Origin: a virus
Length of the DNA stretch: 64,000 bases
Strand: one strand, 5' to 3'
UHGV virus genome: UHGV-0129253
Part shown: piece by piece, positions 22,756 to 55,839 of the stretch
Numbering within the stretch: position 1 is the stretch's first letter
Layout: each line of letters opens with the position of its first letter
Program-made: the position numbers and the translations under genes
Notes under the pieces: model-generated
Told to the model about the DNA's origin: nothing
The model's input: the letters and a program-made list of their open reading frames with translations, nothing else
Databases searched by the model: none

Positions 22756-22810
22756 CCTGCTTCTGTATATATAAATAATAAGTAACTTATTAAATATATA
22801 CGGAAGCAGG
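22756..22810. repeat. 55-bp AT-rich long hairpin CCTGCTTCTGTATATATAAATAATAAGTAACTTATTAAATATATACGGAAGCAGG, copy 1
   Basis: Identical copy at 55785-55839. Confidence 0.6.
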
Positions 22811-22846
22811 CTTCGTAAGACATGCCAGACCTAATTAAACACCCCA

Positions 22847-22861
22847 GAAAACAAGTTGGTT
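22847..22861. promoter_or_regulatory. Early-type half-palindrome GAAAACAAGTTGGTT
   Basis: Upstream of TerS-like gene. Confidence 0.3.
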
Positions 22862-22872
22862 AGCAGATGCAG

Positions 22873-22888
22873 TAAACAAGTTGTTTTA
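22873..22888. promoter_or_regulatory. Early-type palindrome TAAACAAGTTGTTTTA
   Basis: ~40 nt upstream of ATG 22927. Confidence 0.35.
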
Positions 22889-22926
22889 GAGCGCATGGAC
22901 GCGCTCTGTGTGTTTTAGAGGGATCT

Positions 22927-23559
22927 ATGACGGTCGAAAAAGACGAGGTAAAAACTCGCCTGACACCAGCGGAGTGGGCCGAAGCTGAAGCCAAATGGAC
23001 GTCAGGCGAATATACACTCTCAAAGCTGGAGGAAGAGTACGGCATTCGTCGTGAAACACTCTCCAGACATTTCAAAAAGCGAGGATTAGAGAAAGGCGCG
23101 GACTCTGTTGGGAAGATGGTTCGTGAGTCTCTTAAATCTGACGCAGAGCTTCGCGCTAAAGCCCGTGCGGAAAAGATAGAAGAACGTCGTACACGTTATG
23201 ACGGCTGGGCGTATGCGTTGGGGCAGATGGTGATGGTCGAAGTCACTACGGCCAAACGTGAGGGTAAGCCTTTAGGGGCGATTGAGGATTCTCTCAAGAG
23301 CTTACAGAGAGCCAGTAATACCCTTGCAAAATGCTTTGAAGTTTCGTCCAAAGCATTGGGCATGGATCATGCGGAAAATGACGAGGAAGAAATTCCGAAC
23401 CTGGTATTTGGTGAGCTTACGCCTTCCCAGGTGGCGAAATTACGTCAGGAAGACGACGAGCCTGAAATCATCGATGACGAATTGCTTGAGACGTTAGAAG
23501 AAGAAGCTCTAAGCGAATTTGATGCGACAGATGATGGAAGTGAAGGGGAGGACGAATAA
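22927..23559 (+). CDS. Putative terminase small subunit (N-terminal HTH, acidic C-terminus)
   Basis: Directly upstream of and overlapping TerL. Confidence 0.5.
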   Translation: MTVEKDEVKTRLTPAEWAEAEAKWTSGEYTLSKLEEEYGIRRETLSRHFKKRGLEKGADSVGKMVRESLKSDAELRAKARAEKIEERRTRYDGWAYALGQMVMVEVTTAKREGKPLGAIEDSLKSLQRASNTLAKCFEVSSKALGMDHAENDEEEIPNLVFGELTPSQVAKLRQEDDEPEIIDDELLETLEEEALSEFDATDDGSEGEDE

Positions 23560-24815
23560 TGGCAATCCCGTCCTCGCTCAGTCTTGTGCAACTGCATTCT
23601 GGACAGATGAAAGTCTTCCAGTCTCCGCATCGATTTAAAGTTGTTTGTGCTGGTCGACGCTGGGGAAAATCCCGGTTGTCGATCTCCACTATTATTCGTG
23701 CGGCGGCAAAGGAAAAAAAGCAAAGGGTCTGGTATGTCGCTCCTACTTACCAGATGGCTCGCCAGATTTTGTGGGACGATCTACAGGAAGTTCTGCCTCG
23801 TAAGTGGGTTAGGAAAAAGAACGACACCACGATGACAATCGTGTTGAAGAACGGTTCGGAGATCGCCCTCAAAGGTGCTGATAAGCCTGACACTCTGCGC
23901 GGCGTAGCGTTGCATTTTGTAGTGCTTGATGAATTTCAGGATATGAAGGCTGACACCTGGTACAAGGTGTTACGACCTACTCTTTCATCGACACGCGGCG
24001 GTGCACTGATCATTGGTACGCCAAAAGGCTTCTCGGAATTTCACAAACTGTGGACTATAGGCCAGAACGTAGAGCTGCAAAGAAAGGGACAGTGGAAGAG
24101 CTGGCAGTTTGTAACTGCCGATTCTCCGTTTGTGCCTACGGCGGAAATTGAAGCTGCTAAGAACGATATGGACCCCAAATCGTTCGCTCAGGAGTACCTG
24201 GCCAGCTTTGAGAACATGTCCGGGCGCGTTTACTACCCGTTCGATCGTAACGTGCATGTAAAACCGCTTCAGTTCAACCCTCGGTTGCCTATATGGGTAG
24301 GGCAGGACTTCAACATTGACCCGATGTCTTCAGTAATTTTGCAACCTCAGCCAAATGGTGAGCTATGGGCAATTGATGAATTGGTGCTCTTTTCCTCTAA
24401 CACGGCAGAGGTTTGTGATGAGCTTGAGAGACGCTTCTGGCGCTGGAAATCACAGATAACGGTATTTCCAGATCCGGCAGGTGCTTATCGCCAACATGCT
24501 CGCGGGGAGTCTGACGTCGACATATTCAAAGAGAAGGGATTCTTACGTGTCGATTATTCGAAAAAGCACCCGCCAATTGCGGATCGTGTTAATGCTGTTA
24601 ACCGAATGCTGATGACCGCATCTGGAGATATCCGGCTGTATATCGATCCGAAGTGCAAGCATTTGATTGATTCACTGGAAAAAGTCATCTACAAGCCTGG
24701 AACACGAGATATGGATAAGACAGGTGGCATTGAGCATAGTGCAGACGCATTGGGCTATCCAGTACATCGTAGGTATCCAGTCAAAAACCGTGTTATTCTT
24801 GGTGGTTCTCGATAG
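23559..24815 (+). CDS. Terminase large subunit
   Basis: Walker A VCAGRRWGKS, Walker B VVLDEF, C-terminal nuclease-like region; followed by portal. Confidence 0.8.
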   Translation: MAIPSSLSLVQLHSGQMKVFQSPHRFKVVCAGRRWGKSRLSISTIIRAAAKEKKQRVWYVAPTYQMARQILWDDLQEVLPRKWVRKKNDTTMTIVLKNGSEIALKGADKPDTLRGVALHFVVLDEFQDMKADTWYKVLRPTLSSTRGGALIIGTPKGFSEFHKLWTIGQNVELQRKGQWKSWQFVTADSPFVPTAEIEAAKNDMDPKSFAQEYLASFENMSGRVYYPFDRNVHVKPLQFNPRLPIWVGQDFNIDPMSSVILQPQPNGELWAIDELVLFSSNTAEVCDELERRFWRWKSQITVFPDPAGAYRQHARGESDVDIFKEKGFLRVDYSKKHPPIADRVNAVNRMLMTASGDIRLYIDPKCKHLIDSLEKVIYKPGTRDMDKTGGIEHSADALGYPVHRRYPVKNRVILGGSR

Positions 24816-24830
24816 GTAAGTAATTATCTA
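24812..24830. promoter_or_regulatory. Late-type motif ATAGGTAAGTAATTATCTA
   Basis: 12 nt upstream of portal ATG. Confidence 0.4.
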
Positions 24831-24841
24831 AGGTTATTCAA

Positions 24842-26416
24842 ATGGAATTGAACGACAAACAAATTAAGGATCTGGTGGCGCGACGCCACCCGGAATACGA
24901 AAAGAAAAAAGAACATTGGGACTTCCTCGCCAGCACTTACGCTGGCGGGCGTGGTTGGTTTACAGACAATATCTTTCGTTACTTTAAAGAGGGAGATCAG
25001 GAGTTTAAGGAGCGAGTTGAACGTGCTTATCGCTTCAACCACACTCGTGAGGTGGTAAACCTCATCAACAAATATCTCTTTAAAGAAGACATTCATAGAA
25101 ATATCGAAGAGGCACCAGAGCAGATCCGCAATTTCTGGAAACGTGCGACTCGCCAGAATGCCTCTATTGACTCATTTATGGCCGCTATTGATTTGCAGTC
25201 GTCTATTTACGGTCGCATATGGGTTGTTGTCGATAGCACGATGAGTGGTGATGTTGAGTCAGTAGCTGACGAGAAAAAGAAAGATGCTCGCGCCTACGCC
25301 TACTGGATTTCACCTCAGCAAATGCTGGATGTGGCATGGGACGACGACGGGAATATGTTGTGGGCGTTAATTGTGGAAGTCGCTCGTGATGACGCAGATC
25401 CTTTTACTTCTACAGGTCAGGAATACCAACGTTATCGTCTGTGGACACAAAACGAGTGGTATCTGTTCCGCGAGGAAGTGAAGAAGGGCGCTGGTGGAGC
25501 AGGTCGCCGTCAGGCAAAAGTTATTTTAGAGGATAGCGGTGAGCATAATCTCGGCGTAGTTCCTGTGTTTCCTGTTGATTGTATTGGAGAAAGTGAATCA
25601 CCGTATTTCAGCCCATCGTTGATCGATGATATCGCTTATCTTGATCGTGCGGTTGCAAACTATCTGTCAAACCTTGATGCCATTATTCAGGATCAGACAT
25701 TTAGCCAGTTGGCTATACCGGTACAGTCGCTTTTACCTGGTGATGAAAACCACACTAAAGTGCTTGAAATGGGCACAAAGCGAGTCTTCACCTACGATTC
25801 TGAAGGTGGAAACCAGCCGTTTTATCTGTCACCAGACCCGAAACAAGCTCAGATGATCATCACTACGATTAAGACGGTGATTAACGAAATCTACCATTCA
25901 GTTGGTGTAGCTGGTGAGCGAACGAAGCAGGACAACGCACAGGGAATCGATAATTCATCTGGTGCCGCAAAAATGTATGACTTCCAGCGTGTAAATAGCT
26001 TGCTTGTCACAAAAGCAGAGCGTCTGGAAAGGGCTGAACGCCAAATCATGCTACTGGTTGCGAAATGGATGGGGGCAGATCTGGACGAAGACCACTCTTT
26101 AATTGCGTATCCAGAAAGTTTCGATATTCGTGGCCTTACTGATGAATTTTCTGTTGCCGAGAAACTGTCATTACTTCAGGCACCGGACTCTGTACGTCGT
26201 CACCAGATGGAAATGCTTATTGAGAAGATTTTCCCGAACATTACTGAGGCGATGAAAAAGGAATTTGATAAAGATCTCTTGAATTTTCCTCCAAAAAATG
26301 ATCTAAATACCCTTGAAAATAAGTCAGTACTTACTTATGATCGTGGTACGGCCCAAGAAAGCGGGCAAGATCAACCCCGAGGGAATGGGGACTCATCTAC
26401 TCAAGAGAACGAGTGA
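24842..26416 (+). CDS. Portal protein
   Basis: 524 aa, position between TerL and scaffold. Confidence 0.75.
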   Translation: MELNDKQIKDLVARRHPEYEKKKEHWDFLASTYAGGRGWFTDNIFRYFKEGDQEFKERVERAYRFNHTREVVNLINKYLFKEDIHRNIEEAPEQIRNFWKRATRQNASIDSFMAAIDLQSSIYGRIWVVVDSTMSGDVESVADEKKKDARAYAYWISPQQMLDVAWDDDGNMLWALIVEVARDDADPFTSTGQEYQRYRLWTQNEWYLFREEVKKGAGGAGRRQAKVILEDSGEHNLGVVPVFPVDCIGESESPYFSPSLIDDIAYLDRAVANYLSNLDAIIQDQTFSQLAIPVQSLLPGDENHTKVLEMGTKRVFTYDSEGGNQPFYLSPDPKQAQMIITTIKTVINEIYHSVGVAGERTKQDNAQGIDNSSGAAKMYDFQRVNSLLVTKAERLERAERQIMLLVAKWMGADLDEDHSLIAYPESFDIRGLTDEFSVAEKLSLLQAPDSVRRHQMEMLIEKIFPNITEAMKKEFDKDLLNFPPKNDLNTLENKSVLTYDRGTAQESGQDQPRGNGDSSTQENE

Positions 26417-26437
26417 TAAGTAACAAAAGGAATTTTT

Positions 26438-27325
26438 ATGAATCTGTGGCAAATGCTTTTGGCCCGTCGTGGTCTGATGGATGTCGCTGAAGCGCATGAG
26501 CGTGGAGGCGCTGGCGGTGTAGCTGCTGATAATGAGCAGAGTACACAAGATCCTGACAAACAGGGTGAACAAAAAGAGCAGCCGAAGGGCGATGACGAAT
26601 ACGCTGGCATGACTCAGGAAGAGTTACTGGCCGAACTTCGTAAAACCAAGAAAGCTGGTGCTGAACTGCTGAAGGAGAACATGAAGCGCAAAGAGAAAGA
26701 GCGCACATTGGCCGATCAGCTTGCTCAGTACGGTGATATCGATCCGGCTCGTGCTCGCCAGCTTTTAGAAGCTGAACAGGCCGCAGAAAACGCACGTCGT
26801 GAGGCGGAGCAAGCTGAACTGGAGCGTCGTGGTGAGTTCGATGCTGTTAAAAAACAGATGATCGAAGCACACCAGGCAGAGCTGGCACAGCGTGACGAAC
26901 GTTATGCAGCACTGGAAAGTGAAAACGCATCACTGAAATCTCAATTAGTCGAGATGACCGTGGGCGCTTCCTTCAGTAACTCTCTCTTCCTACGTGACAA
27001 AGTTCTGATGACCCCGGCAAAAGCCCGCGTGATCTACGGTTCTCATTTTGAAGTGGGTGAAGACGGTAGCGTAGTGGGTTATGACAAACCGGCAGGTCAC
27101 AAAGAACGAGCTGTTCTGGTTGACGGTGAAGGTAAGCCGTTGCCGTTTGAATCCGCGATTGAACGCATTGTGCGGGCAGATCCGGAAGCTGACGCATTGA
27201 TGCGTAGCGAAGCCAAGCAGGGTGTAGGCTCACATTCCAAATCGACCTACACAATATCCCAACCGAAGAACAAGTCGACTATGGATAAGTTGGCCTCCGG
27301 TCTGGGGAAAATTGGACTTAAGTAA
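26438..27325 (+). CDS. Scaffolding protein
   Basis: Charged coiled-coil-rich 295 aa between portal and capsid. Confidence 0.55.
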   Translation: MNLWQMLLARRGLMDVAEAHERGGAGGVAADNEQSTQDPDKQGEQKEQPKGDDEYAGMTQEELLAELRKTKKAGAELLKENMKRKEKERTLADQLAQYGDIDPARARQLLEAEQAAENARREAEQAELERRGEFDAVKKQMIEAHQAELAQRDERYAALESENASLKSQLVEMTVGASFSNSLFLRDKVLMTPAKARVIYGSHFEVGEDGSVVGYDKPAGHKERAVLVDGEGKPLPFESAIERIVRADPEADALMRSEAKQGVGSHSKSTYTISQPKNKSTMDKLASGLGKIGLK

Positions 27326-27350
27326 CATCTAAATCAAAGGGAATTGATAG

Positions 27351-28226
27351 ATGCCATTACTGCGTGAAGAAGCTGAAAAGCTGTCTAACAACGAACTTGA
27401 ACAGGGCGTGATTGAAACCATCATCGATCGCGATGACCTGTTTGCCATCCTGCCTTTTATGAAAATTAATTCAAAGGCATATCTGTACAACCGTGAAAAA
27501 ACGCTGAGTGAAGCTACCTTCATCGACGTTAACGACACCATCACTGAAGGTGCAGCAACCTTCGAAGAATGCGTTGCGAAACTGCGTATTCTGGCTGGTG
27601 ACGTAGACGTTGATAAATTCCTGGCAACCACTATGGCCGACACCAATAACCAGTTGGCTATTCAGGTTCGTCAGAAAGTTAAAGGTCTGGCTCGTGCGTT
27701 CCGTCGCAACCTGATTTTGGGTGACTCCAGCTCCAACACCAAAGCGTTCGACGGCATTCCACGCCTGATGCACGCAGATCAGAAGATCGATATCGCCGGT
27801 GCATCTATGACTTTCTCTATGTTCGACGAACTGGTCGATGCGGTGAAAGATCTTGGTGCTGACTGCATCATGATGCGTTCAGAGCACCTGCGTGCTTACC
27901 GTGCGCTGCTGCGTACAGTAAACGTAGGTCCGTCTGAAATCATGATGGAGAACTTCGGTCGTCCGATGCTGTGTCATAACGGCGTTCCGTTCATCATCAA
28001 CGACTTCATCCCGACCGATTCTGGCAAAGCAAGCATCTACTGCCTGCATCTGTCAGAAGAGAACGGCGTTACTGGTCTGTATGGCGGCGACAACGCAGGT
28101 ATCGTTGTTGAAAACATTGGTACTGTACAGAACAAAGACGCAGTACGTACCCGTGTGAAGTGGTACTGCTCTCTGGCGAATAAGCACGATAAGGCTATCG
28201 CTGCACTGACCAATGTAAAAATTTAA
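27351..28226 (+). CDS. Major capsid protein
   Basis: 291 aa, canonical position; strong terminator downstream. Confidence 0.65.
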   Translation: MPLLREEAEKLSNNELEQGVIETIIDRDDLFAILPFMKINSKAYLYNREKTLSEATFIDVNDTITEGAATFEECVAKLRILAGDVDVDKFLATTMADTNNQLAIQVRQKVKGLARAFRRNLILGDSSSNTKAFDGIPRLMHADQKIDIAGASMTFSMFDELVDAVKDLGADCIMMRSEHLRAYRALLRTVNVGPSEIMMENFGRPMLCHNGVPFIINDFIPTDSGKASIYCLHLSEENGVTGLYGGDNAGIVVENIGTVQNKDAVRTRVKWYCSLANKHDKAIAALTNVKI

Positions 28227-28233
28227 TCAGTGA

Positions 28234-28254
28234 AGTAGATAAGTAATTATCTAT
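28234..28254. promoter_or_regulatory. Late-type motif AGTAGATAAGTAATTATCTAT
   Basis: Between capsid and Ig-like gene. Confidence 0.4.
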
Positions 28255-28260
28255 GTTAAA

Positions 28261-28286
28261 GGGTGGGCTATACGCCCACCCTTTTT
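28261..28286 (+). terminator. Rho-independent terminator (GGGTGGGC-tatac-GCCCACCC + TTTTT)
   Basis: 8-bp GC stem plus T5. Confidence 0.65.
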
Positions 28287-33356: not shown

Positions 33357-36300
33357 ATGTCACAAAACGTAGAGTTTATCCTGTCGCTGGAAGACAAACA
33401 GTTTACAGCGTCAATCGATCGTGCGGGGAAACTGCTTACTCGATTTGGTGAGCAGGTAACAAAGCCTGCTCAAAAAATCCAAACCTTTGAACGCTCTTTG
33501 GGTTCGGTCGCCCGTATCATTGGCGTTCTGGAAAGCAAGCTCGATTCTACGGCAGATAAACTACAGGATGTAGCTGCCGGTTTTGAGCTTGCTTCAGATG
33601 CTACGCGTAAAATGCGTGGCAACATCACCAGCCTCAATTCTGGTCTTAAAGCCCTGATTGAGCGCGTCGATACGACAACTTCTTCAGTAGATAAACTCAC
33701 CGCGTCATTACGTAAAGTGCAATCAGAGCTAAATGATTTCTCTGATTGGGCGACCTATGCAAGCAAAAGCGCAAGCCGCTTTGGTACGGAGGTCAAAGAA
33801 GCCTCTGCGTCCGTGAGTGGCATGAATACGCGCCTTAATACCACGACGAAGCGACTCAGTAATTGGGGTGTCACAACGAGTCAGGCTGCCGAGGGACTGA
33901 AAAAGGTTCGTGAGCAGATGGACGAAGTTATCGGACGTCAGCAACTGATTAGCAAGCCGGTACGCGTTCGTACATCTGGAAGTGGCGATGGTGGTAGCGG
34001 GCGGCGTAGCGGCGCTTCTGGCCATAGCGGTAAAAGTAACGAAGGAGGTATGTTCTCTGGCCTTCGTGGCAACATTTTCCTGCTTGGCGAGATCGGAGAT
34101 GCAGCCAGAACGGTTACTGACATCATGTTTGGGTGGCAGAAGCCTATTGTTGAAGCTGCGGCCGAAATGGAACGTATGCGGGTGATGCTTCGAGGGTTGA
34201 ATAAGGAGAAGTCCAACCCGGGCCAGGCTGCCGCTGATGATATGAAGTACATCGTAGACATGGCGCAAAATGCGCCGTTCGCGATGCAGGCGTTAACAGA
34301 TTCCTTCGTGAAGTTTCGTTCTGCTGGCTTAGATCCAACCGATGGTTCTCTGAAGGCGCTGGTGGACTCCGTTGCTCGTTTTGGTGGTGATAGTGAGCTG
34401 TTGAAACGTGCGGCTGTGGCCGTTCAGCAGATGTCCGGTAAGGGCGTTGTGTCAATGGAAGAGCTACGTCAGCAATTAGGTGAAGCCGTTCCTAACGCGA
34501 TGCAGGCAATGGCAGACGCCGCAGGCATCACTATGGGGGAACTGACTAAAGCCGTTGCCAGCGGTACGGTTGAGGCAAAACAGGCGTTGTCTCTGATGTT
34601 TGTTGGTCTGCGTGCGGAGAATGAGAACGCAGCGAAAGACATGATGCAAACCTACACAGGTGCGCTGGCGCAACTTCAGACGTCATTCACGTTATTTGCT
34701 GATCGGGTTGGTCAGGCCGGATATCTGGATTCTCTATCGAAGGGGATGAAAGAACTGGCTTCAATCATGAATAGCGCCGAAGGGATTTCGTTTGCCAATT
34801 CTTTAGGTTCGGGGTTAACAACGGCAATCGATGGGTTGCGTCAGCTTGCTCAATGGTTAGCAAAGAACCAAGAGCTGGTGATTAATCTCGGTAAGGTCGT
34901 GGCCGCGATGGTTGCGTTCAAACTGATGCGAGCAGGGATCATGGGGGTAGTTGGCGCAGGCAGCCAGATGGTTAGCACCTTTGCCACGATGGCGACCGCC
35001 ATACAGACTCCATTTAACCTCGGCGCTACAGCAGTAACCCGATTCAATCGTGCGGCACGTATGGGGCTGGCTCCGATCCCCTCTCTTATTTTCGCCATCC
35101 GTGGGGCGATTACGGGGCTTAAAGGCGCTTTTGCTGGATTAACGGCGTTCATTGCGGCAAACCCTATAGGGGCAGCATTTACAGTCGCCACTGTAGCTGT
35201 TGCTGGCCTAATCACGTACATGACCATGCTCCGCAGCGAAACTTCAAAGGTCGTTGACGAGATTAGGAAAATACCAGAGGCGATGACGGCGGCCAAACGT
35301 GCACAAATGGCCGACCGCGCAGAAAAGCTCGAAAAGCAGATTCTTGCTGATCAACGAGCATTAAAAACTGGTGAGGGTGTTAATTACGTATCTAACTCTG
35401 CCGGTGTTATTACTCACAAAGAGTCGAAGGCTGACATCGAAGCACGCCTGAAAAAAAATCAGGAAGAGTATCAAAAGATAACCGGCACGATAGCTCTTGG
35501 TGACGGCGCTGTAGCAAAGCGTTTGGCTAAAGAGGCTGCCGAATCTCAGATTGAGAAAATTCGAGCGGAAAACCAGATTTTCGCGGCAACATTCGTGAAA
35601 GCCCGGCAGGAGGCTCTGGATAAGATCCAGAAAATCAATGATGACGGTTCACTTTCAGATGACGAAAAGAACAAGCTATTGGCACCGTTACGTGAAACGG
35701 TAAACAAAAGCTATCTGGAGCCTGCGCAAAAACTGGTTGATTCACTTTCTTCTCGTAAGAATGCGACCGAGAAGCAAATCGCGACTCTTAATGATCAGCT
35801 TGAAAAAGCCAAAAAGGATGGCAATACCGAGCAAATCCAGAAACTGCAAGGCAGTATTCGTGGTTATCAGGAGCATTTGGAAGCCGTTGCTCAGGAACTT
35901 ACTCAGGCAGAGTTCGAGAGAGATAACGCGGCCAAAACTGGTAAGGGCGTAATGTCAAACCAGGGGACTGTTCTTGGGTTAGGTACAACTGATAAAGCTG
36001 CTCAGAAGGCGTTGGCGCAATATATGCGAAACCAGATGGATTCTGCGACTTATCAGCGTACTTTGCCTGACGGCACTCCGATGATGGACTTCGAAGGTAA
36101 GCCGATTATTGGGCCTAAACAACTCAAGACGCAGCTTAATTTGCAGAAAGCATCCAGCGCCAGCTCTCTGGAGAAAATGAGCGATGAAGAGCGTGCCGCA
36201 GCCATTGCTGCACTGACTAAAGCTCGTGAACAGGATGCAGCAGCTGCCGAGAAAGCAGCCCAACGATCAGCTAACGCCTCGCAGCGTGCGGCCAAGAAGG

Positions 36301-48200: not shown

Positions 48201-50333
48201 GGCGTGGCCTTCGATGGATCTGCGAACATAAATTTGCCTGGTGTAAACACGGCAGGTAATCAGAATACAACGGGCAACGCGGCTACTGCTACGAAGTTGC
48301 AAACAGCGAGAAACATCAATGGTGTTAAGTTTGATGGCTCAGGCGATATCAACATTAATACACTGGTATCTCGTGGCCGAGTTACGGCGTTAAGCGGCTC
48401 TACTCAAGGCACTGCTGGCATTCAAATGTATGAGGCGTACAACAATAGCTACCCGACCATGTATGGCAACGTATTGCACATGAAAGGTGCGAGTGCTTCT
48501 GGTGAGGGCGAGATGCTTGTTGGCTGGAGCGGAACGGATGGTGCTCATGCACCGGTTTATGTTCGTTCACGCCGTGATACTTCGACAGCGAATTGGTCTG
48601 GTTGGGCGCAGGTCTATACCACTGCTCATAAACCCACAGCGAAAGATGTTGGGGCTGCACAGACGTTTAGCGCGTCATACAGTACTGGGGCTGGCAACTG
48701 GACTACCGCTGAATTTATCGCATGGCTGAAGGAGCGTGGTGCTTTCGCCGTACCGTATTGGATGATGAAAGGCTCTTGGTCATATGCCGACAATAAAATT
48801 ATCACTGATACAGGTGTCGGCAATATTTGTCTTGCTGGTGCGGTTATCGAGGTTTTAGGTCACGAAGGCGCAATGACCATCCGAGTTACTACGCCTACAA
48901 CGACAACCGGAGGTGGTATTGCCAGTGCTCAGTTCACCTATATTAATCACGGTAGCGCGTATGCCCCTGCCTGGCGCAGAGATTACAACACGACTCTCAA
49001 ACCCACTGCGGCTGATGTCGGTGCGTTGCCGAGCGGTGGCGGCACACTTTCCGGCGCACTCACATTATCTATGGCTGCGCCAAGTGTCCAGTTACGAGGG
49101 CAAGGTACGGACACCAGACAGTACATCATGGCTTACAGAACCGATGGCGCTACATCATGGTATGTGGGCAAGGCTAACAACGGCTCCGATAATGCGATGT
49201 TCTGGAACTATACCGGCTCCAACGGAATTGAATTGGCTGCCGATGGCAATGTGCGTATTAATGCGAAGGGTAAACAGTTTACGTTCGCAAACAATGGGAA
49301 CTTAGGTCTTGTTGCTTCGTTAGATCAGAGTTCAGTTCCACAGGGTACTTACCATCAAGTAGCTCTTAACACTGGCACTGTTGGTGGTAAATCGTACCTT
49401 CGAAAATTCCGCGGCGGCAACACAGACACCATTTGGCATGAGACGGTTCAGGGCGGCTTCCTTCGTTGGGCAACCGGCAATGCTGATGAGCAAGAAGAAC
49501 TGTCTATCAGTACTGGCTATGGTGTTCGAGCAAGAGGTGAAATCACTTCCCTTAGCGCCAATGGTCTAAGAGTGGCTTACGGGAATTACGGCTTCTTTAT
49601 TCGCAATGATGGCGGAACAACTTACTTCTTGCTGACTGCTTCTGGCGACAAGTTCGGAAGCTGGAATGCTTTGCGTCCAATGTACATTAACAACGCTTCA
49701 GGCGCGGTTACGATGGGGAACGGGTTGTCGCTTGCCGGTGGCTTAAATGTCACGAGCGGAAATATCCGAATCCCGACGTCGAGTACATCTTGGATCGACA
49801 TGAGAAACAATGCCGCTCTGTCTAACAGTTCTGCGGTTGCCACTTCCTCTGCATCGGCCATTATTCGTCAGGAGCACGCCGATCGTCATTATTTTGTTGG
49901 TGGTTTAGGCAACTCTCAGTTCGGGTTCTACATGATTAACAAGTCACGAACCGCGAACGGCACGGATGCGAACGCATACCTCCAGAATGACGGTACTTGG
50001 GTTTGCGGCGGTAATGGCAGCTTTAATGACGTTTATATCCGTTCTGACCGCCGTAGTAAGCGCAATATTCGCAAGATTGACCGGGCGCTCGACAAGCTGG
50101 AGCAGATCGAAGGTGTTCTCTACGAGATTCAGGTCTGTGGCCGTTATGAGCAGTCTGGTGGCCTCATCGCTCAGGATGTCCAGAATGTTCAACCTGAACT
50201 GGTAACGGTCGACCATAACGATCAGTCAGGAGAGCCTCGTCTGCGTCTTAACTACAACGGCGTTATCGGCATGTTGGTTGAGGCTGTCAAAGAGTTGCGC
50301 GAGGAAGTGCGCGAACTGAAGGCAAAAATGTAA
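45297..50333 (+). CDS. Side tail fibre with Ala/Ser-rich region, tail-fibre repeats and C-terminal S74 intramolecular chaperone domain
   Basis: Repeats GNAATATKLQTAR.I.GV.FDGS; C-terminal SDRRSKRNI...LREEVRELKAKM typical of endosialidase-type chaperone. Confidence 0.8.
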   Translation: MWYREGTITFTQGSNTLVGAGTAWNVTANGVLPGMIVIGPDNKLYEIKRVISDTNIVLSEPYTGETQSEVPCRIITTYEGDLTQFSARFTALMSRMSADSKSMRSWLTALDEVTIEREDGTEVAVKPLMQIVNEHNENVEWYKNNTDAIDAAGDKAREAAASAAAAAESANTAGEKASQASQSASAAASSQSAASASATAAKKSETNAAASQKSAATSASTATTKASEAATSARDASASKEAAKSSETSAASSASSAASSATAAGNSAKAAKTSETNARSSETAAGQSASAAAGSKTAAASSASAASTSAGQASASATAAGKSAESAASSASTATTKAGEATEQASAAARSASAAKTSETNAKASETSAESSKTAAASSASSAASSASSASASKDEATRQASAAKGSATTASTKATEAAGSATAAAQSKSTAESAATRAETAAKRAEDIASAVALEDASTTKKGIVQLSSATNSTSETLAATPKAVKAANDNANSRVPSNRKVNGKALTADITLTPKDIGTLNSVTMSFSGGAGWFKLATVTMPQASSIVYIALIGGAGYNVGSPHQAGISELVLRAGNGNPKGITGALWKRTAVGLTNFAWINTSGDTYDIYVEIGNYATSVNIHWDCTANASVSVYTSPTYSASKPSSVTDGVVYTMYSTHQKPTPLDIGALPTTGGTVSGPLSVTGGLTGSLNGNASTATKLQTARSIGGVVFDGSANINLPGVNTTGNQNTTGNAATATKLQTARTINGVKFDGSADITLTPANLDVYSKSEIDNKKGMRKYTFSAPANAVSGKWYPIVFRRSGGSTDELASRVVITTYSSAGGYAMNNCEFNGFVMPGGWSDRGSYAAGFFSIYSTAERAIHSIISSVKDDDLCSVFYVEARAFPIKIFAEEGLNVIVPTADYAVGQTTYKWGATDPLSESTNAQIILDFKNGRGYYCSHPFISSLSGNAATATKLQTARTIGGVAFDGSANINLPGVNTAGNQNTTGNAATATKLQTARNINGVKFDGSGDININTLVSRGRVTALSGSTQGTAGIQMYEAYNNSYPTMYGNVLHMKGASASGEGEMLVGWSGTDGAHAPVYVRSRRDTSTANWSGWAQVYTTAHKPTAKDVGAAQTFSASYSTGAGNWTTAEFIAWLKERGAFAVPYWMMKGSWSYADNKIITDTGVGNICLAGAVIEVLGHEGAMTIRVTTPTTTTGGGIASAQFTYINHGSAYAPAWRRDYNTTLKPTAADVGALPSGGGTLSGALTLSMAAPSVQLRGQGTDTRQYIMAYRTDGATSWYVGKANNGSDNAMFWNYTGSNGIELAADGNVRINAKGKQFTFANNGNLGLVASLDQSSVPQGTYHQVALNTGTVGGKSYLRKFRGGNTDTIWHETVQGGFLRWATGNADEQEELSISTGYGVRARGEITSLSANGLRVAYGNYGFFIRNDGGTTYFLLTASGDKFGSWNALRPMYINNASGAVTMGNGLSLAGGLNVTSGNIRIPTSSTSWIDMRNNAALSNSSAVATSSASAIIRQEHADRHYFVGGLGNSQFGFYMINKSRTANGTDANAYLQNDGTWVCGGNGSFNDVYIRSDRRSKRNIRKIDRALDKLEQIEGVLYEIQVCGRYEQSGGLIAQDVQNVQPELVTVDHNDQSGEPRLRLNYNGVIGMLVEAVKELREEVRELKAKM
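45760..46650 (+). repeat. Low-complexity Ala/Ser/Thr-rich coding repeat (GC-rich) inside the tail fibre gene
   Basis: Generates long spurious ORFs in other frames and on the minus strand. Confidence 0.6.
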
Positions 50334-50399
50334 TCAAGGTGAATGGTGAGGGGCCACCCTCACCAATTCAGGATATTCACATCAAAAAGGAGATTAGAT

Positions 50400-51182
50400 G
50401 TGCCAATTGTCGGTGTTCCCGGTTGGATTGGGTCTTCGGCTGTCAGTGTGACAGGCCAGAGATGGATGAGTGCGGCTCGAACGGCGGTGCAACTGCCAGC
50501 GGCTGGTTCAATGTCTCAAATGGCCGGGCGATCTAAAGAAGTTCAGTACAGCATCGGTGCGAATCATAACTACAACAAAGACACACTGATCAACTATTTA
50601 AAATCCCAGGGGGCGACGCCAGTCGTTGTTACCATTACAGGGGATCTGGTGTCGTCCAGTAGCGGCGTGCCATGTTTAGATTTCCCGAGTTCACTTACCA
50701 ACTCTTATATCAGCCTTGTAATCAACGCAGGTGTGACTGTCTATGGACGCGGTGGCAATGGTGGTAGTAACGCTGCCGGTGCTGCTGGTGGTAACGCAAT
50801 TAATAATGGCATCGGTACACGCTTGCGTATTACGAATAATGGTGCAATCGCTGGAGGTGGTGGCGGCGGTGGCGGCGGTAACAGGGGTCGACTAGTATTT
50901 GGTGGTGGCGGTGGGTGCCCATTCGGTGCTGGTGGGTCTTCCTCTCATATGAGTTCCGGTGCAACTGCTGGTACTATTTCCACTCCTGGTAAGGGATCTG
51001 TTGGTGAGGGGTCTCTTAGTGCATATACAGGCGGTTCGGGTGGTAATGTCGGTGCTGCTGGAGGAAGATGTAATACTCAAGGTAACGGTACAGAATATAA
51101 CGGCGGAGCAGCTGGTAAAGCTGTTACTGGTAATGCTCCAACTTGGACTAAAGTTGGGGCAATTTACGGCGCTCATGTGTAA
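50400..51182 (+). CDS. Glycine-rich protein, possibly tail fibre-associated
   Basis: GTG 50400 with AAGGAG 7 nt upstream; poly-Gly tracts. Confidence 0.45.
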   Translation: MPIVGVPGWIGSSAVSVTGQRWMSAARTAVQLPAAGSMSQMAGRSKEVQYSIGANHNYNKDTLINYLKSQGATPVVVTITGDLVSSSSGVPCLDFPSSLTNSYISLVINAGVTVYGRGGNGGSNAAGAAGGNAINNGIGTRLRITNNGAIAGGGGGGGGGNRGRLVFGGGGGCPFGAGGSSSHMSSGATAGTISTPGKGSVGEGSLSAYTGGSGGNVGAAGGRCNTQGNGTEYNGGAAGKAVTGNAPTWTKVGAIYGAHV

Positions 51183-51195
51183 GTACTTACCTACC
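51177..51195. promoter_or_regulatory. Late-type palindrome GTAAGTACTTAC
   Basis: Upstream of lysis cassette. Confidence 0.35.
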
Positions 51196-51256
51196 AAGTG
51201 TGGGCGTTTTATGATATAAAACCGCCATCCCGATTTGACTTTTCATGGAGGAAAAC

Positions 51257-51580
51257 ATGTCGAACGAGATGGCGGGCGTTACAACAGAGCAAGTTGAGCG
51301 TATTGCCGCGATCGTTGCTCGGGAGGTTGTTGGCAAATTAGGTAAAGAGCTACGTGAAGAAATTGGCCAGGAGGTCAATGATCAGCTGAAAACCTACTTT
51401 GGTGATATGACCCCGGCGCAACATAGTATTCAACACTCCAATCTGGACAAACTCCTTAACCGGTTAGATTCCATCTCAAGTGGGTTCTTTGGCGGCATTG
51501 TTTCTAAAATAACGTCGTTCATTATTACCGCACTGCTTTTGGGGTTAGCCGCGTATGGCGTAAAAAGTGGACTGCAATAA
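51257..51580 (+). CDS. Putative holin or membrane lysis protein (single C-terminal TM)
   Basis: Hydrophobic FIITALLLGLAAYGV; first gene of lysis cassette. Confidence 0.4.
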   Translation: MSNEMAGVTTEQVERIAAIVAREVVGKLGKELREEIGQEVNDQLKTYFGDMTPAQHSIQHSNLDKLLNRLDSISSGFFGGIVSKITSFIITALLLGLAAYGVKSGLQ

Positions 51581-51593
51581 CAGGAGATCAAGG

Positions 51594-52286
51594 ATGAAAA
51601 CTCCGAGAGGCATTCGTAATAACAACCCTGGCAACCTCGACAAAGGTTCGCCGTGGCAGGGGCTAATCGACAACCCTGCCGAACCGCGCTTTTGCACGTT
51701 TAAAGACCCTGTTTGGGGGATTCGTGCGCTGGCGGTGACTCTAATTACCTACCACGACAAACGTCGCGCAAAAGACGGCTCAAGTATCGATACCATTCGT
51801 GAAGTTATTGAACGTTGGGCACCGCCGAATGAAAACAATACTGACGCCTACATTAATGAGGTGTCTAAAGCCGTTGGTGTAACCGCAGACATGATTATCG
51901 ATCTGCATGATTACGACATTCTTCGACCTTTGGTTGAGGCAATCATTCGCCATGAGAATGGGCGAGGTCCGCTAAAAACGCTGAACACCTGGTATGCGGC
52001 AGAAGTTATTGAGGAAGGTCTGCGTCGAGCTGGCGTTGTTAAGCCGGCGAAAACCGTGAAGGCTGTTCCTGTAACTAAAGAAACCGCAGGCGCAACTGTT
52101 ACAGCAGGTATTGGTCTGGCGCAGCTGGCCGATGTTATGCCGCAGGTTTCCGCTGCTATGGATAAAGCACAAGGTCATATCTCTAGCGGGGATACAGTAC
52201 GCATCATCTTCGGTATTGCCACCATTGTTGTGGCAGGATTCATTGCCTGGTCGCAGGTAAGAAAACACCAGAAAGGGATGGTCTAA
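51594..52286 (+). CDS. Putative endolysin / lysis protein (by position), with C-terminal TM segment
   Basis: 230 aa between holin-like and spanin genes; function not recognised from sequence. Confidence 0.35.
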   Translation: MKTPRGIRNNNPGNLDKGSPWQGLIDNPAEPRFCTFKDPVWGIRALAVTLITYHDKRRAKDGSSIDTIREVIERWAPPNENNTDAYINEVSKAVGVTADMIIDLHDYDILRPLVEAIIRHENGRGPLKTLNTWYAAEVIEEGLRRAGVVKPAKTVKAVPVTKETAGATVTAGIGLAQLADVMPQVSAAMDKAQGHISSGDTVRIIFGIATIVVAGFIAWSQVRKHQKGMV

Positions 52287-52287
52287 T

Positions 52288-52539
52288 ATGCTAGGCAGCC
52301 TGATGACAAAGCTAAAAGTTGCTTTGATTACGCTGGCTGCCGTTCTTTTCGTTCTTGTCGGCGCTTACACGATGGGCGGGAATGCGGCGCGACGAGCAAT
52401 GGAAGAGAAGGCAAAACAGGAAGACAGAAAACGACTTCAAAACACAGTGAAAGTGGTGAATGAGACGAACAGTGAAATACGTCAGAAAGATGCTTCTGCC
52501 ATTCATCGTGAGCTGCATGATAAGTGGATGCGTCATTAA
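52288..52539 (+). CDS. i-spanin (Rz-like): N-terminal TM plus charged coiled coil
   Basis: MLGSLMTKLKVALITLAAVLFVLVGAY then EEKAKQEDRKRLQ. Confidence 0.55.
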   Translation: MLGSLMTKLKVALITLAAVLFVLVGAYTMGGNAARRAMEEKAKQEDRKRLQNTVKVVNETNSEIRQKDASAIHRELHDKWMRH

Positions 52540-52675
52540 GCCACAAACCACTAGCGTGTTGTTCTGCGATGGCGCTGAACCTATTTATATCAGCAATGAC
52601 GATGTAATGACCGAAGAAACCGAACGCCAAATCCTTTTTCACAATACGATGGGAGAGAGAGTTTGCGGTTGGTGA
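52490..52675 (+). CDS. o-spanin (Rz1-like) lipoprotein, +1 frame overlapping the i-spanin 3' end
   Basis: Signal MLLPFIVSCMISGC with lipobox ISGC; overlaps 52490-52539. Confidence 0.55.
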   Translation: MLLPFIVSCMISGCVIKPQTTSVLFCDGAEPIYISNDDVMTEETERQILFHNTMGERVCGW

Positions 52676-52707
52676 TGTCGAAGTTCCCCTCAAATGAGGG
52701 GGACACA

Positions 52708-53229
52708 TTATTCTTCGAACAATTTTTCGATAGATTTTGTTGGATAGAACAAAGAACGATCGTTGTTACCAACCAGCTGGATAAAGCCCAAACTTTTATA
52801 AAACGCCCTGGCTTTATCGTTCAACGCCTCAACGAAAAGCCCATGAATGCCTACCGCAAGAGATGCATTGTACACAACACGCATTGCGTGAGTTACAAGC
52901 ATTGAGCCAAGCCCCTGACCTTGAAGAGATTTGTCCAAAGCCAGTCTGCCTAAAGTGATACTTGGGACATTCCGATAAGGCACTTTCTTTTGCTGACTCT
53001 TTGAAGGTAAGGTTTCTTTCTCAAAGCAGCTGCCTGACAAAGTGTAATAACCTAATACCTTTGGTATTTCTTCTTTAGTGCAAAGCACATAAGCGCGAAG
53101 AATTTTTCCTTCATGCTGTCTTTTTAAGTGGTTGGTCAAAAATGCGTTTAGTGACTCTTCGCCGCAATCAAAACCGTTTAGATCATAATCGTTCTCTCCA
53201 GAGAAAATCTCGATCGTCGTATTGCTCAC
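52708..53229 (-). CDS. GNAT-family toxin (TacT/AtaT/KacT-like type II TA toxin)
   Basis: 173 aa GNAT; paired with upstream DUF1778-type antitoxin. Confidence 0.75.
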   Translation of the reverse strand: MSNTTIEIFSGENDYDLNGFDCGEESLNAFLTNHLKRQHEGKILRAYVLCTKEEIPKVLGYYTLSGSCFEKETLPSKSQQKKVPYRNVPSITLGRLALDKSLQGQGLGSMLVTHAMRVVYNASLAVGIHGLFVEALNDKARAFYKSLGFIQLVGNNDRSLFYPTKSIEKLFEE

Positions 53230-53236
53230 GAGTAAA

Positions 53237-53506
53237 TTACTCCATGCTTTTCAGACGATTGGCAGCTCGTTTCAGCTTGTCGTTCGGTGCCGGAGGATTG
53301 CTTATAGCATCCATAACCAGATTCCAGGACTCTTCACTTAGAACCAGTCTACGGTGTTGCTCTATCACCTTCACGGCACGTTCGGATGCACTGCTAACCA
53401 TGAACTGGGTAATGCTCTGGTTAGACATTGCGGCAGCTTCCTCGATGATGCTTTTATCGTCATCGGTTAATCTCAAATCGATGCGCTGCTTTTTCAGTGC
53501 GGACAT
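53237..53506 (-). CDS. DUF1778 / RHH antitoxin (TacA/AtaR-like)
   Basis: 89 aa, 7 nt upstream of the GNAT gene on the same strand. Confidence 0.75.
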   Translation of the reverse strand: MSALKKQRIDLRLTDDDKSIIEEAAAMSNQSITQFMVSSASERAVKVIEQHRRLVLSEESWNLVMDAISNPPAPNDKLKRAANRLKSME

Positions 53507-53775
53507 GTGTACCCCCTGATGGCCGGTGATGTAGGAAGGCCATCATTGCTCTCTATTTAAACTGAGTTTTCGACTCAAAGGTTATTTAACTGGGCTATAG
53601 CCCATTGCGTATGTGTCATCAAATTGTGTACGGCAATTTACCGTACTCGTAATATAGAGATGATTGTCACTTTTTTCAACAGACAAATGAAAACAGTTAC
53701 TAGCAATAGGCAATAACAACCTACTAAATAACCTTTACACCGCAGCCGTAGGCATTTAGGCTATATCACATATAA

Positions 53776-53791
53776 GAAAACAAGTTGTTTC
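53776..53791. promoter_or_regulatory. Early-type palindrome GAAAACAAGTTGTTTC upstream of the ParA-like gene
   Basis: 35 nt upstream of ATG 53826, followed by GATAAT. Confidence 0.4.
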
Positions 53792-53825
53792 AGACGATAA
53801 TTATATACGCAAAGGGAACTCTCCA

Positions 53826-54494
53826 ATGACCAAGATCTTTGTGGTTGGCGGCACAAAGGGCGGGCCTGGCAAATCCACTGTTGCCCAGCAAATTGCCGTT
53901 TGCCTGAAAGTCAAAAAGAAGAAGAAGGTTTATATCACTGATATAGATATTCAGCGCACGACAACAAGCTGGTGTGAAGACCGTAGACAGAACGAAGACC
54001 TTGAGCTGATTCCTTTTGCATACGTTCAGGATGACATCATTAAGCACCTAAAATCGCTTCAGGGTAGAGCTGAGTTTGTAGTGGTAGATGCTGGTGGCTT
54101 TGACTCCGAAATTCAGCGACAAGCGATGCTGATGGCCGACGTTATCATTATCCCGCTTCGTCCCAAGCGTCGTGATTTGAAATCTCTGCGTGACATTGAT
54201 CCTATTATCGACAATGTTCGTAATGTAAACGATAAAGTGAAGGTCCGCGCGGTCATGAACCAGTGCCCGGCTTTGCCATCACAAGTGTCTCGCATTCTGG
54301 CGGCTAAAGAGATTGTTGAGACGTTTGGCATCGAGTCTGCGCCAGTCAATTTATATAACCGCAACGTCTATGATGATGCGGAAGAGTCTGGTCGTTCTAT
54401 CTTTGAAATGACCGGTAGCGAGCGCGACAAAAAGGCGGAAGCCGAGTTTGAAGAATTTGTAGATTATCTGTTGAGTCTGGAGGAAGAAGAATAA
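53826..54494 (+). CDS. ParA/ParF-type partition ATPase
   Basis: Deviant Walker A GGTKGGPGKST; 222 aa. Confidence 0.8.
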   Translation: MTKIFVVGGTKGGPGKSTVAQQIAVCLKVKKKKKVYITDIDIQRTTTSWCEDRRQNEDLELIPFAYVQDDIIKHLKSLQGRAEFVVVDAGGFDSEIQRQAMLMADVIIIPLRPKRRDLKSLRDIDPIIDNVRNVNDKVKVRAVMNQCPALPSQVSRILAAKEIVETFGIESAPVNLYNRNVYDDAEESGRSIFEMTGSERDKKAEAEFEEFVDYLLSLEEEE

Positions 54495-54853
54495 TGTCCA
54501 TGAAAATGGGTGACCTAGCAAAGCGCAAAGAGCCTGATGCACCGGCCAAGAACACAACTCCTTTGCGCCAACCAGTCAGACCACAGGGACGCCCGACTCG
54601 TGGCAAAGAGAAAATTAAAAGCCGCACAATGTCACTGGAGGACGAATACTTCGAACTGCTGGAAATGATGAAGTTCATCCCTCGTTTCGAGAAGTTCACC
54701 CGTTCTGACGTGATTCGCGCAGCCATTTTCCATCTGGCAGAGAAGTCACCGCAGGAAATCGAGGACATCGTGAAATTGAATGAGGCGATCACCGCTGCCG
54801 ATGTCACGATGCGTACCGATGAAATCAAACGAGAGTTGATGAAGAAAGGTTAA
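54494..54853 (+). CDS. Putative partition partner (ParG/ParB-like, basic N-terminus)
   Basis: 119 aa, start overlapping ParA-like stop. Confidence 0.5.
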   Translation: MSMKMGDLAKRKEPDAPAKNTTPLRQPVRPQGRPTRGKEKIKSRTMSLEDEYFELLEMMKFIPRFEKFTRSDVIRAAIFHLAEKSPQEIEDIVKLNEAITAADVTMRTDEIKRELMKKG

Positions 54854-54858
54854 AAATC

Positions 54859-54889
54859 ATGCATTGGCGCGTACATTGCGCCAATGCAT
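54859..54889. terminator. Perfect palindrome ATGCATTGGCGC-gtacatt-GCGCCAATGCAT between convergent genes
   Basis: 12-bp arms; bidirectional terminator or centromere-like site. Confidence 0.45.
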
Positions 54890-54905
54890 AACTACAGTGT
54901 CAGCT

Positions 54906-55673
54906 TTATGCCGCGCTAACACTATGTTCAGTCCTAACCACCCCAACCTTCACAAAAGGGCTACCGTAGCTTGGTGGCTTCTTGATTAATTTGCCTACAT
55001 ACAGTTTTCTAATATGCTCATCGGCTATTCTGCCAACAAATTCATAACGTTTTGTGTCGGGGCCAAGAGCTATATCCCTTGTAAAGTACTGCTGAGAACC
55101 GGCTTTGACCCAGCATTCAATCTGATAAACTTCCATTATTAGCCCACCATATGTAGCGTAGGCATATTTGAGATTCTCGTCTCTTGGAACCTTTGCCCAT
55201 ACGCCACGCGTAGCTTCATATAATGCCAGAGCGGACATTCCTGACTTGTAGGTGCTGTTTAGCAGGAAGGCAAGACCGGCGTGCTCAGGAGCAATTTCAG
55301 TTTCCTCTTGCAGCACTAAGTGATGGTAGGCGTCCAGTGATATTCTGCCCATCATGGAACCACTTCCTCGTACCTTATTCGTAAGCTCTCCGACCCCCAT
55401 AAGGTCGATGCATGTCGCCTCAACAAGTTTGGCTGTGGTTTCATCCATACCATGACGAAGAATATCTATGCCTAATTTTTTATTAGCCAAAAGTTCTTTG
55501 ATCCGCATGGATTTGGGAGAGTCATCGGGATACTTGATGTGATCGAGACAACGAGTCGATTTGCCTTTTCCTATGTAAAACGGTCTTTTCATCTTGTCTT
55601 CTGTATCATAGAGGCAGTAAACATAGTATTTAGCCTTATCCAATGATCTCGCGTATACCGATAAATCGTCCAT
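54906..55673 (-). CDS. GIY-YIG nuclease-domain protein
   Basis: N-terminal YYVYCLYD...RPFYIGKGKSTR motif; 255 aa. Confidence 0.6.
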   Translation of the reverse strand: MDDLSVYARSLDKAKYYVYCLYDTEDKMKRPFYIGKGKSTRCLDHIKYPDDSPKSMRIKELLANKKLGIDILRHGMDETTAKLVEATCIDLMGVGELTNKVRGSGSMMGRISLDAYHHLVLQEETEIAPEHAGLAFLLNSTYKSGMSALALYEATRGVWAKVPRDENLKYAYATYGGLIMEVYQIECWVKAGSQQYFTRDIALGPDTKRYEFVGRIADEHIRKLYVGKLIKKPPSYGSPFVKVGVVRTEHSVSAA

Positions 55674-55784
55674 TATTGCATCTCTTTGCTACTGACTAAT
55701 GCGTTCTATTTTACACATAAGTTTTTAATCAATTTAACAGGCTCAAAGTGTAGAGCTTCTGGGCGTCTAAGACGACAAGTTATG

Positions 55785-55839
55785 CCTGCTTCTGTATATA
55801 TAAATAATAAGTAACTTATTAAATATATACGGAAGCAGG
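55785..55839. repeat. 55-bp AT-rich long hairpin, copy 2 (identical to 22756-22810)
   Basis: Exact repeat read directly. Confidence 0.6.

Follow-up and report, generated by a model that had tools for sequence, protein, structure and literature searches.

The DNA analysed here is a stretch of 64,000 nucleotides (nt) of the virus genome UHGV-0129253, referred to below as the window. It contains two copies of an AT-rich hairpin, termed A and B, with the common sequence CCTGCTTCTGTATATATAAATAATAAGTAACTTATTAAATATATACGGAAGCAGG. Hairpin A lies between the gene of an 88-amino-acid (aa) protein and the terminase genes, and hairpin B lies between a GIY-YIG endonuclease gene and the replication module (Table 1). 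A first-pass annotation had described this gene context and the identity of the two copies. Both descriptions were confirmed on re-inspection, with 55 of 55 positions matching. An exact repeat of 55 nt in 64 kb is not explicable by chance. The window is 97-99% identical to the Escherichia phages CMS-2020a, PhiR41_1 and Cyrano and approximately 80% identical to Salmonella phage SSU5, and by this identity the replicon is an SSU5-type phage-plasmid. The complete genome CP053388.1, to whose minus strand the window corresponds, holds a third, diverged copy, termed site C. The element had been annotated as present twice, which is correct within the window, and the whole genome has three orthologous sites.

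Structure of hairpins A and B

Folding confirmed the annotated imperfect stem of approximately 25 bp with GC clamps. The basal part is a GC-rich clamp of 8 bp, five of which are G-C pairs (CCTGCTTC/GAAGCAGG), followed by a T.G pair. Above it, the stem continues with 8 bp (GTATATAT/ATATATAC), a 3x1 internal loop, an upper stem of 7 bp and a loop of 3 nt. The sense-strand RNAs of A and B fold with their flanks at -30.5 and -30.8 kcal/mol, respectively (z -7.5 and -7.9), and none of 200 shuffles matched these energies. The antisense RNAs are less stable, at -26.4 and -23.8 kcal/mol. A scan of the window revealed no GC-clamped AT-rich hairpin of the same type besides A and B, and no isolated clamp half-sites elsewhere in it.

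The palindrome reaches approximately 100 bp when the outer inverted repeats are counted, which are GGTCTGG/CCAGACC at A and TTCTGG/CCAGAA at B. Outer repeats of the form KTCTGG(GAG) ... (CTC)CCAGAM are found at every site, at a variable distance of 15-27 nt from the clamps. At site C of SSU5, they read GTCTGGGAGTT and AACTCCCAGAC. DNA folds of regions of approximately 110 nt pair the outer repeats at all three sites, with energies of -24.6, -21.0 and -18.9 kcal/mol and z values of -8.0, -6.5 and -5.0. The first of these folds covers 22728-22838, where the two arms flanking A pair with each other. An Rfam scan of 22400-23100 gave nothing over threshold; only models of microRNA precursors matched, with approximately 20 bits against cut-offs of 70-211. 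A promoter and terminator scanner did not call the hairpins and detected no sigma-70 promoter in their flanks.

The first-pass annotation had also placed the core of a late motif at the hairpin centre. This was not borne out, as the centres are not among the matches to the motif TAAGTAAGTA with at most one mismatch. Nor is such a core a trait of the family. The centre of site C is CTACATATTAATTATT, and elsewhere the centre varies or unpairs while the clamps are fixed.

Site C and distribution of the element

Site C lies approximately 6.6 kb ahead of the window start, in the orientation of the window. Its clamps and polarity correspond to those of A and B (CCTGCTTCTGTATATATAAATAA...TATACGGAAGCAGG), and the difference lies in the centre given above. 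Hairpins of this type were pulled from 297 fetched loci, and their flanks were mapped to the genome. Site A accounted for 105 occurrences, site B for 106 and site C for 19; variant counts here and below refer to sequences and not to independent events. No fourth context was found among the mapped hairpins, and no locus combined flanks from two different sites. A 14-mer scan of IMG/VR, a redundant sample, returned 47 chance matches among 120 loci, and all others were site A, B or C.

Conservation in relatives had been proposed as a check. Every relative sampled from Escherichia, Salmonella, Klebsiella, Yersinia and Kluyvera has orthologues of A, B and C. In SSU5, site A spans the joined record ends, site B is found at 33458-33513 and site C at 78304-78360. 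A 71-nt query matched 800 plasmids in PLSDB, from Klebsiella, Escherichia, Enterobacter, Yersinia, Salmonella, Citrobacter and Cronobacter. The element is present in 258 of 5,426 complete E. coli genomes (approximately 5%), at 402 places, all of which are plasmid-borne. A host repeat resembling repetitive extragenic palindromes, bacterial interspersed mosaic elements or miniature inverted-repeat transposable elements was rejected, as no chromosomal place was found in the 5,426 genomes. Full-text literature searches on SSU5, pHCM2 and pMT1 did not reveal any earlier account of it. The element is best regarded as an apparently undescribed form of known types, namely intergenic terminator or insulator hairpins or conserved boundary palindromes.

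Clamps, centres and T-tracts

Conservation was analysed in an alignment of 46 unique variants from all three sites. Hardly any variation was seen in the 14-bp clamp CCTGCTTCYGTATA/TATACRGAAGCAGG. The interior is AT-only and variable in sequence, and slippage of (TA)n gives a total length of 49-57 nt. Compared with shuffled interiors, the interior pairing of E. coli A and B is stronger than expected (z approximately -3.5 to -4), and that of Salmonella-type B and of site C has a z of approximately 0. Since the spacing between the clamps varies, the sequences argue that the clamps act by pairing with each other, as an RNA or DNA hairpin, and not as half-sites in duplex DNA. A structure of paired clamps would tolerate the length change, which a rigid protein dimer on duplex half-sites would not.

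Strand asymmetry was found mainly at B. Of 31 unique B variants, 27 fold more stably as sense than as antisense RNA; the corresponding numbers are 9 of 20 for A and 3 of 9 for C. Positions of B that deviate from Watson-Crick pairing are G.U-compatible on the sense strand in 34 cases and of the C.A type in three. The 3' clamp of B directly abuts a T-tract on the sense strand (Table 1). Among more than 40 distinct right flanks of site B, nearly all start with TCTTT(T), and every one has 4-7 T in its first 9 nt. The right flank of site C reads CTGTTTT or CTTTTT in most lineages, and two lineages (E and F) are without a tract. In many variants, an A-rich run directly precedes the hairpin. These flanks suggest that the ancestral element was built symmetrically, from an A-tract, the hairpin and a T-tract. 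In the window, TTTAAAGA, on the left of A, and TCTTTTAA, on the right of B, are complementary to each other.

Identity of A and B and mosaicism at site B

Several positions distinguish A from B in Salmonella-type genomes. The two nevertheless share AATACT where both E. coli copies have AATAAT, and E. coli B carries an A-type 3' half. Gene conversion between A and B is proposed because such lineage-specific substitutions are common to both copies. The full identity in the window thus points to common descent with occasional gene conversion, and not to a functional requirement that the copies be identical. As a check, a test for recombination or inversion had been suggested. With both copies in direct orientation, recombination would remove the intervening segment and not invert it. 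The corresponding junction of the left flank of A with the right flank of B, a deletion of 33 kb, was found in none of 251 matching PLSDB plasmids, and no chimeric junction occurs among 230 hairpin occurrences in IMG/VR.

At B, the hairpin variant tracks the lineage of the right flank; it follows neither the left-hand cargo nor the presence of the GIY-YIG endonuclease. For this reason, it was rejected that the endonuclease homogenises A and B. A concerted change of clamp mismatches in A and C was also rejected, as the same C-type clamp is found together with different A-type clamps.

The left flank of site B exists in more than 20 unrelated versions, and its right flank is conserved. In 20 loci, the left flank is unrelated and the right flank at least 95% identical; in nine loci, the left flank is 97-99.7% and the right flank 82-87% identical. 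Sites A and C show little mosaicism. Windowed identity profiles of the loci L124 and L128 revealed an island of 95-100% identity from approximately 54600 to approximately 55900, with both flanks at approximately 82%. This island contains the GIY-YIG gene and hairpin B, and the flanks at 82% are the neighbouring par and replication genes. In sequence, it bears the signature of a mobile homing-endonuclease cassette in the cargo slot left of B. In two of four profiled loci, the island of high identity includes the hairpin and extends approximately 60 nt past it.

Position of the sites in the genome

According to the annotated SSU5 map, the three sites split the circle into functional blocks, and the layout is the same in this genome (Table 1). 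The block from B to C comprises replication and nucleotide metabolism, and the block from C to A regulatory and maintenance genes. Nearly all genes are located on one strand. The GC skew is positive almost throughout and flat at A, B and C, with no inflection. At all three SSU5 sites, the distance from the stop codon of the upstream plus-strand gene to the hairpin is 22-27 nt, and the same applies to A and C of this genome. The next start codon follows approximately 107-137 nt after the hairpin end at each site. Specifically, A starts 25 nt past the stop codon of the 88-aa open reading frame (ORF) and ends 116 nt ahead of the TerS-like start codon. B in the window is preceded by the inserted minus-strand GIY-YIG gene and followed by the genes of a 246-aa protein and a DnaB-like helicase.

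Table 1. Hairpins, flanking elements and neighbouring genes in the window, and the genome segments delimited by sites A, B and C
Feature	Position or length	Strand	Description
Hairpin A	22756..22810	+	55 nt; clamp CCTGCTTC-T-GTATATAT, AT-rich centre, ATATATAC-G-GAAGCAGG
Hairpin B	55785..55839	+	55 nt; same sequence as A
Outer inverted-repeat arm, left of A	22734..22743	+	GGTCTGGGAG; abuts stop codon of the 88-aa ORF; kept in relatives
Outer inverted-repeat arm, right of A	22825..22831	+	CCAGACC; pairs with the left arm in the DNA fold
Outer inverted-repeat arm, left of B	55757..55763	+	TTCTGGG; in many, not all, left-flank variants of site B
Outer inverted-repeat arm, right of B	55857..55863	+	CCAGAAC
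T-tract of B	55840..55845	+	TCTTTT; abuts the 3' clamp on the sense strand
88-aa protein gene	22465..22731	+	PHROG 900; no Pfam match
TerS-like DNA-binding protein and TerL	22927..24815	+	First virion-module genes downstream of A
GIY-YIG endonuclease gene	54906..55673	-	Pfam PF22945, 30.1 bits (cut-off 27)
246-aa protein and DnaB-like helicase	55956..58080	+	First replication-module genes downstream of B
ParB-like genes (two)	19540-20906		
ParA-like genes	4628-5728 and 53826-54494		
Segment A to B	~33 kb in this genome		Packaging and virion genes, then par and cargo genes
Segment B to C	~45 kb		DnaB, primase, ligase, DNA polymerase, SSB, recombinase, NrdAB, ThyA, DNA methyltransferase
Segment C to A	~29 kb		RNase H, Ant, repressor-like proteins, many small genes, helicase and further genes
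Segment C to A, further genes			Two ParB-like proteins, two ABC-type ATPases, 88-aa protein

Proposed function at the module borders

The reading preferred here, which is held tentatively, is that A, B and C may act as transcriptional insulators or terminators at module boundaries. Because almost all genes are on one strand, unchecked transcription would run round the circle. In the proposed mechanism, the sense transcript would fold into the hairpin, whose GC-rich base abuts a U-rich tract. Read-through from the upstream module would be terminated, or strongly paused and then processed. The lytic replication and virion modules would in this way be insulated from the genes of the plasmid-prophage state, such as par and cargo genes, and the promoter region of the next module would be situated within approximately 110-140 nt past the hairpin. 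The anatomy, the orthology of three sites, the border position, the T-tracts and the conservation patterns are observations, from which we infer an RNA hairpin that stops transcription. Insulation is favoured because of the border position after a stop codon, the one-strand layout, the T-tracts of B and C, the wobble asymmetry of B and the association with the downstream block. With regard to the latter, the hairpin belongs with the conserved downstream block, and the upstream cargo is freely exchanged, as would be expected of a shield that protects the downstream module. The stability of the hairpins (-28 to -31 kcal/mol, z approximately -7.7), their tolerance of length change and their restriction to these plasmids also count in favour of insulation.

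The resemblance to Rho-independent (intrinsic), in part bidirectional, terminators is partial. As in these, a stable stem-loop with a GC-rich base is found tens of nt past a co-directional stop codon (in the window, B follows the minus-strand insert), a T-tract follows at B and, in most lineages, at C, and an A-rich tract often precedes. The stems differ in being approximately 25 bp long and mostly A-T, and in that their sequence is kept at three sites and in several genera without covariation. A d'Aubenton-Carafa-type discriminant gave values of -20 to -73 for six hairpins, below what is expected of a terminator, and +32 for a canonical GC-rich terminator at 28261; by construction, the discriminant penalises long AT-rich stems.

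These discriminant values weigh against termination, as do several further observations. The T-tract of site A is weak, with 2-4 T among 9 nt, and a simple terminator would have no need of the conserved outer inverted repeats. The clamp is nearly invariant at the three sites even in lineages with flanks that are only 68-80% identical, and it stays fixed where the flanking coding DNA shares only 68-77% identity. Its near-invariance suggests a sequence-specific reading or homogenisation, and not structure alone. RNAalifold yielded 12 consensus pairs, of which one shows a compensated change, in a single sequence, with a covariation term of -0.22. At pair 9/47, U.G occurs 21 times, C-G 11 times, U-A seven times and C.A seven times, which fits an independent pyrimidine and purine. 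Site C has C.A mismatches on the sense strand in several lineages. Furthermore, distant TerS relatives in GTDB, from Xenorhabdus and Morganella, show no significant hairpin at the A position, and in Morganella there is none at the B position either.

A doubtful possibility is that the clamp, and perhaps the outer GGTCTGGGAG boxes, would be read by a protein of the phage-plasmid in the form of a hairpin, cruciform or duplex. The sites could then be conditional insulators, or dispersed centromere-like or origin sites. In the conditional version, the insulators would be closed for as long as the plasmid-prophage persists, and their opening on induction would let transcription circle the genome. 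If protein-read sites prove true, they would represent a new class of cis-element that organises the plasmid-versus-phage programme of the SSU5/pHCM2/pMT1 group.

Alternative explanations

Several alternatives were considered. It is rather unlikely that the three palindromes, as duplex or extruded cruciform, are bound by a protein of the phage-plasmid in the role of dispersed operators, roadblocks or centromere-like sites. Bound in this way, they would couple plasmid maintenance to the silencing of lytic modules. Candidate binders would be the products of the TerS-like gene and of the two ParB-like genes, and the MarR-like 88-aa protein. Such a function would account for a clamp that is near-invariant without covariation at three paralogous sites across deep divergence, for the conserved outer boxes GGTCTGGGAG/CTCCCAGACC on both sides of each site and for the poor scores as classical terminators. 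It is also consistent with only three dispersed copies at module borders, with the end of the winged-helix gene 25 nt from A and with two ParB-like and two ParA-like genes in the genome. In these respects, the sites recall the SopB centromeres of N15 and the KorB O_B operators of RK2, which are few palindromes at operon borders. However, the known sites of ParB, KorB and SopB are uninterrupted palindromes 13-16 bp in length, and the present element consists of two 14-bp boxes with an AT spacer that varies from 23 to 29 nt. TA slippage shifts the clamp spacing by up to 8 bp and the spacing of the outer boxes ranges over 15-27 nt, which is awkward for a fixed dimer. There are also no isolated half-sites elsewhere in the window, the consensus WATCAANNNNTTR of the integration host factor (IHF) is absent in and near both hairpins, and the sense T-tract and the wobble asymmetry of B are left without explanation. 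A P1/P7-type parS, which has an IHF site at its centre between box A and box B motifs, was rejected on the same absence of a WATCAANNNNTTR match. By analogy with the T7 RNase III sites (R0.3 to R18.5), the hairpins could instead be processing or mRNA-stabilising structures, in which read-through RNA would be cut within a hairpin of approximately 25-45 bp, leaving protective 3' hairpins. The T7 sites are a set of related imperfect hairpins, 50-60 nt long and each with an internal loop, which occur between co-directional genes and share sequence among copies. The predicted fold of the present element likewise provides at least approximately 20 bp of double-stranded RNA with an asymmetric internal loop in an intercistronic position between co-directional modules, its stem of approximately 25 bp being extended to approximately 45 bp by the outer repeat. 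Nevertheless, this explanation is improbable. Here, there are three AT-rich copies with T-tracts, and processing does not require a conserved T-tract. Moreover, interior pairing is lost in some lineages, being in many no better than that of shuffled AT-rich sequence, and no Rfam match was obtained.

The remaining alternatives concern the DNA itself. Lytic replication origins or single-strand initiation sites would consist of inverted initiator boxes round a meltable AT centre, and the element does offer two conserved inverted boxes round an AT-only spacer of 23-29 bp, in three dispersed copies, one of which (B) adjoins the genes of the 246-aa protein, DnaB and primase. In layout only, this is analogous to the oriS/oriL of herpes simplex virus (HSV), with their inverted conserved boxes, AT-only centre and three copies per genome. 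Unlike there, no initiator match and no skew signal were found here. The lack of a GC-skew inflection at any site, the lack of iterons, the location of A and C away from replication genes, and the fact that none of the five IHF-consensus matches in the window falls at a site make origins very unlikely. An equally low probability is given to pure recombination linkers, that is, short homologies for module exchange between related phage-plasmids without a role in expression. The sharp mosaic junction at B, with its many unrelated left flanks and conserved right flank, and the lineage-specific changes common to A and B would fit this function. T4-type PeSL cassettes and the 'boundary sequences' of mosaic phages are comparable, as conserved intergenic stem-loop elements at mosaic joints, and the slot left of B is likewise a hot spot, for cargo as well as for a GIY-YIG homing-endonuclease gene. 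PeSL differ in being numerous and in having an early promoter, whereas the present element has three copies and no promoter was detected inside. Against linkers, the identity island in two of the four profiled loci spans the hairpin and approximately 60 nt beyond, so the breakpoint lies outside the hairpin; A and C are scarcely mosaic, recombinants of A and B are absent from the 251 PLSDB plasmids and the 230 IMG/VR occurrences, and the T-tract and the fixed stop-codon distance are unexplained. Lastly, a packaging site (cos or pac) at which terminase would cut in or beside hairpin A could be suspected, as A is just upstream of terS and the linear SSU5 and Cyrano records start inside it, corresponding to 22793/22794 of the window. 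This is extremely unlikely, given that two more copies with the same clamps are located 29 and 33 kb away and that joining the SSU5 record ends restores an intact hairpin with no overlap. Draft contigs often break here; the IMG/VR loci L084 and L095 begin inside B, and many records of the 88-aa protein are marked 'partial', with contigs ending at hairpin A. The start of the SSU5 and Cyrano records is plausibly an assembly break that was copied by later depositors.

Relevance for phage-plasmids

Phage-plasmids of the SSU5/pHCM2/pMT1 type are common in clinical Enterobacteriaceae and carry resistance genes and other cargo. A border element in three copies provides an easily mutated handle on the expression of maintenance and cargo genes versus silent lytic modules. 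The element also marks the cargo slot left of B, which holds the homing-endonuclease cassette and other variable genes. Furthermore, the repeats explain breaks in short-read assemblies of these plasmids, probably including the SSU5 reference record.

Neighbouring genes and other motifs

The AlphaFold model of the 88-aa protein has a pLDDT of 81.6, and Foldseek matched it to MepR, MarR and ZitR with TM scores of 0.7-0.76. The protein is thus predicted from its modelled structure to be a MarR-like winged-helix DNA-binding protein. It is a possible candidate for binding the hairpin, the only link being its proximity to A. For the 246-aa protein downstream of B, an all-helical model without an informative structural match was obtained. 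Upstream of the terminase genes, at 19540-22455, two ParB-like nuclease-domain proteins are followed by two small ABC-type ATPases, and some homologues of the TerS-like protein elsewhere have a ParB domain (PF02195). The 366-aa ParA-like gene at 4628-5728, on the minus strand, is not followed by a ParB gene. Beside it, approximately 800 nt at 3400-4200 are without a sizeable ORF, a region that may be a cis-region for replication or partition. Three tandem units of approximately 270 nt are located at 14797-15368, each with the hairpin AAAGCGCCCATAGTGGGCGC; small minus-strand ORFs are flanked by them.

Three further motifs were noted in the window. The palindromic motif AAAACAA-N-TTGTTTT (AGAAAACAAGTTGTTT) is present in at least nine copies, in a cluster at 7986-13702 and at 22846-22890, 53775-53794 and 56705-56724. 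It usually lies just ahead of the ribosome-binding sites of small genes, and two copies are found between hairpin A and terS. From its sequence, it looks like an operator for a dimeric regulator. Positions 22887-22918, directly ahead of the ribosome-binding site of terS, hold a T-run and a GC-rich hairpin (TAGAGCGCATGGACGCGCTCTG TGTGTTTTAG). This arrangement is kept in SSU5, which suggests, judging by sequence, an attenuation or antitermination control of the late operon. The motif TAAGTAAGTA gave 20 matches with at most one mismatch, compared with 1.95 expected, a tenfold excess, in short intergenic gaps, mostly those of the late operon. Its positions include 19522, 24813, 26320, 28240, 32596, 38316, 45235, 51184, 55925, 60230 and 62716. 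Several copies form small hairpins of the type TAGRTAA-GNRA-TTAYCTA, such as at 28236-28253. Some copies have a GC-rich hairpin behind them, which at 28261 comes with a T-run. The motif has a stop codon in each of the three frames and is, by analogy, reminiscent of stoperator-like or processing signals.

In Morganella and Xenorhabdus, another motif is shared upstream of terS, namely TATGGGAGCA(C/A)GG, which is found at 2941-2960 of locus L169, at 2856-2875 of L297 and in L167 and L168. In Morganella, it is also present upstream of the homologue of the 246-aa gene. These lineages may thus use a counterpart signal of their own at the same borders between modules.

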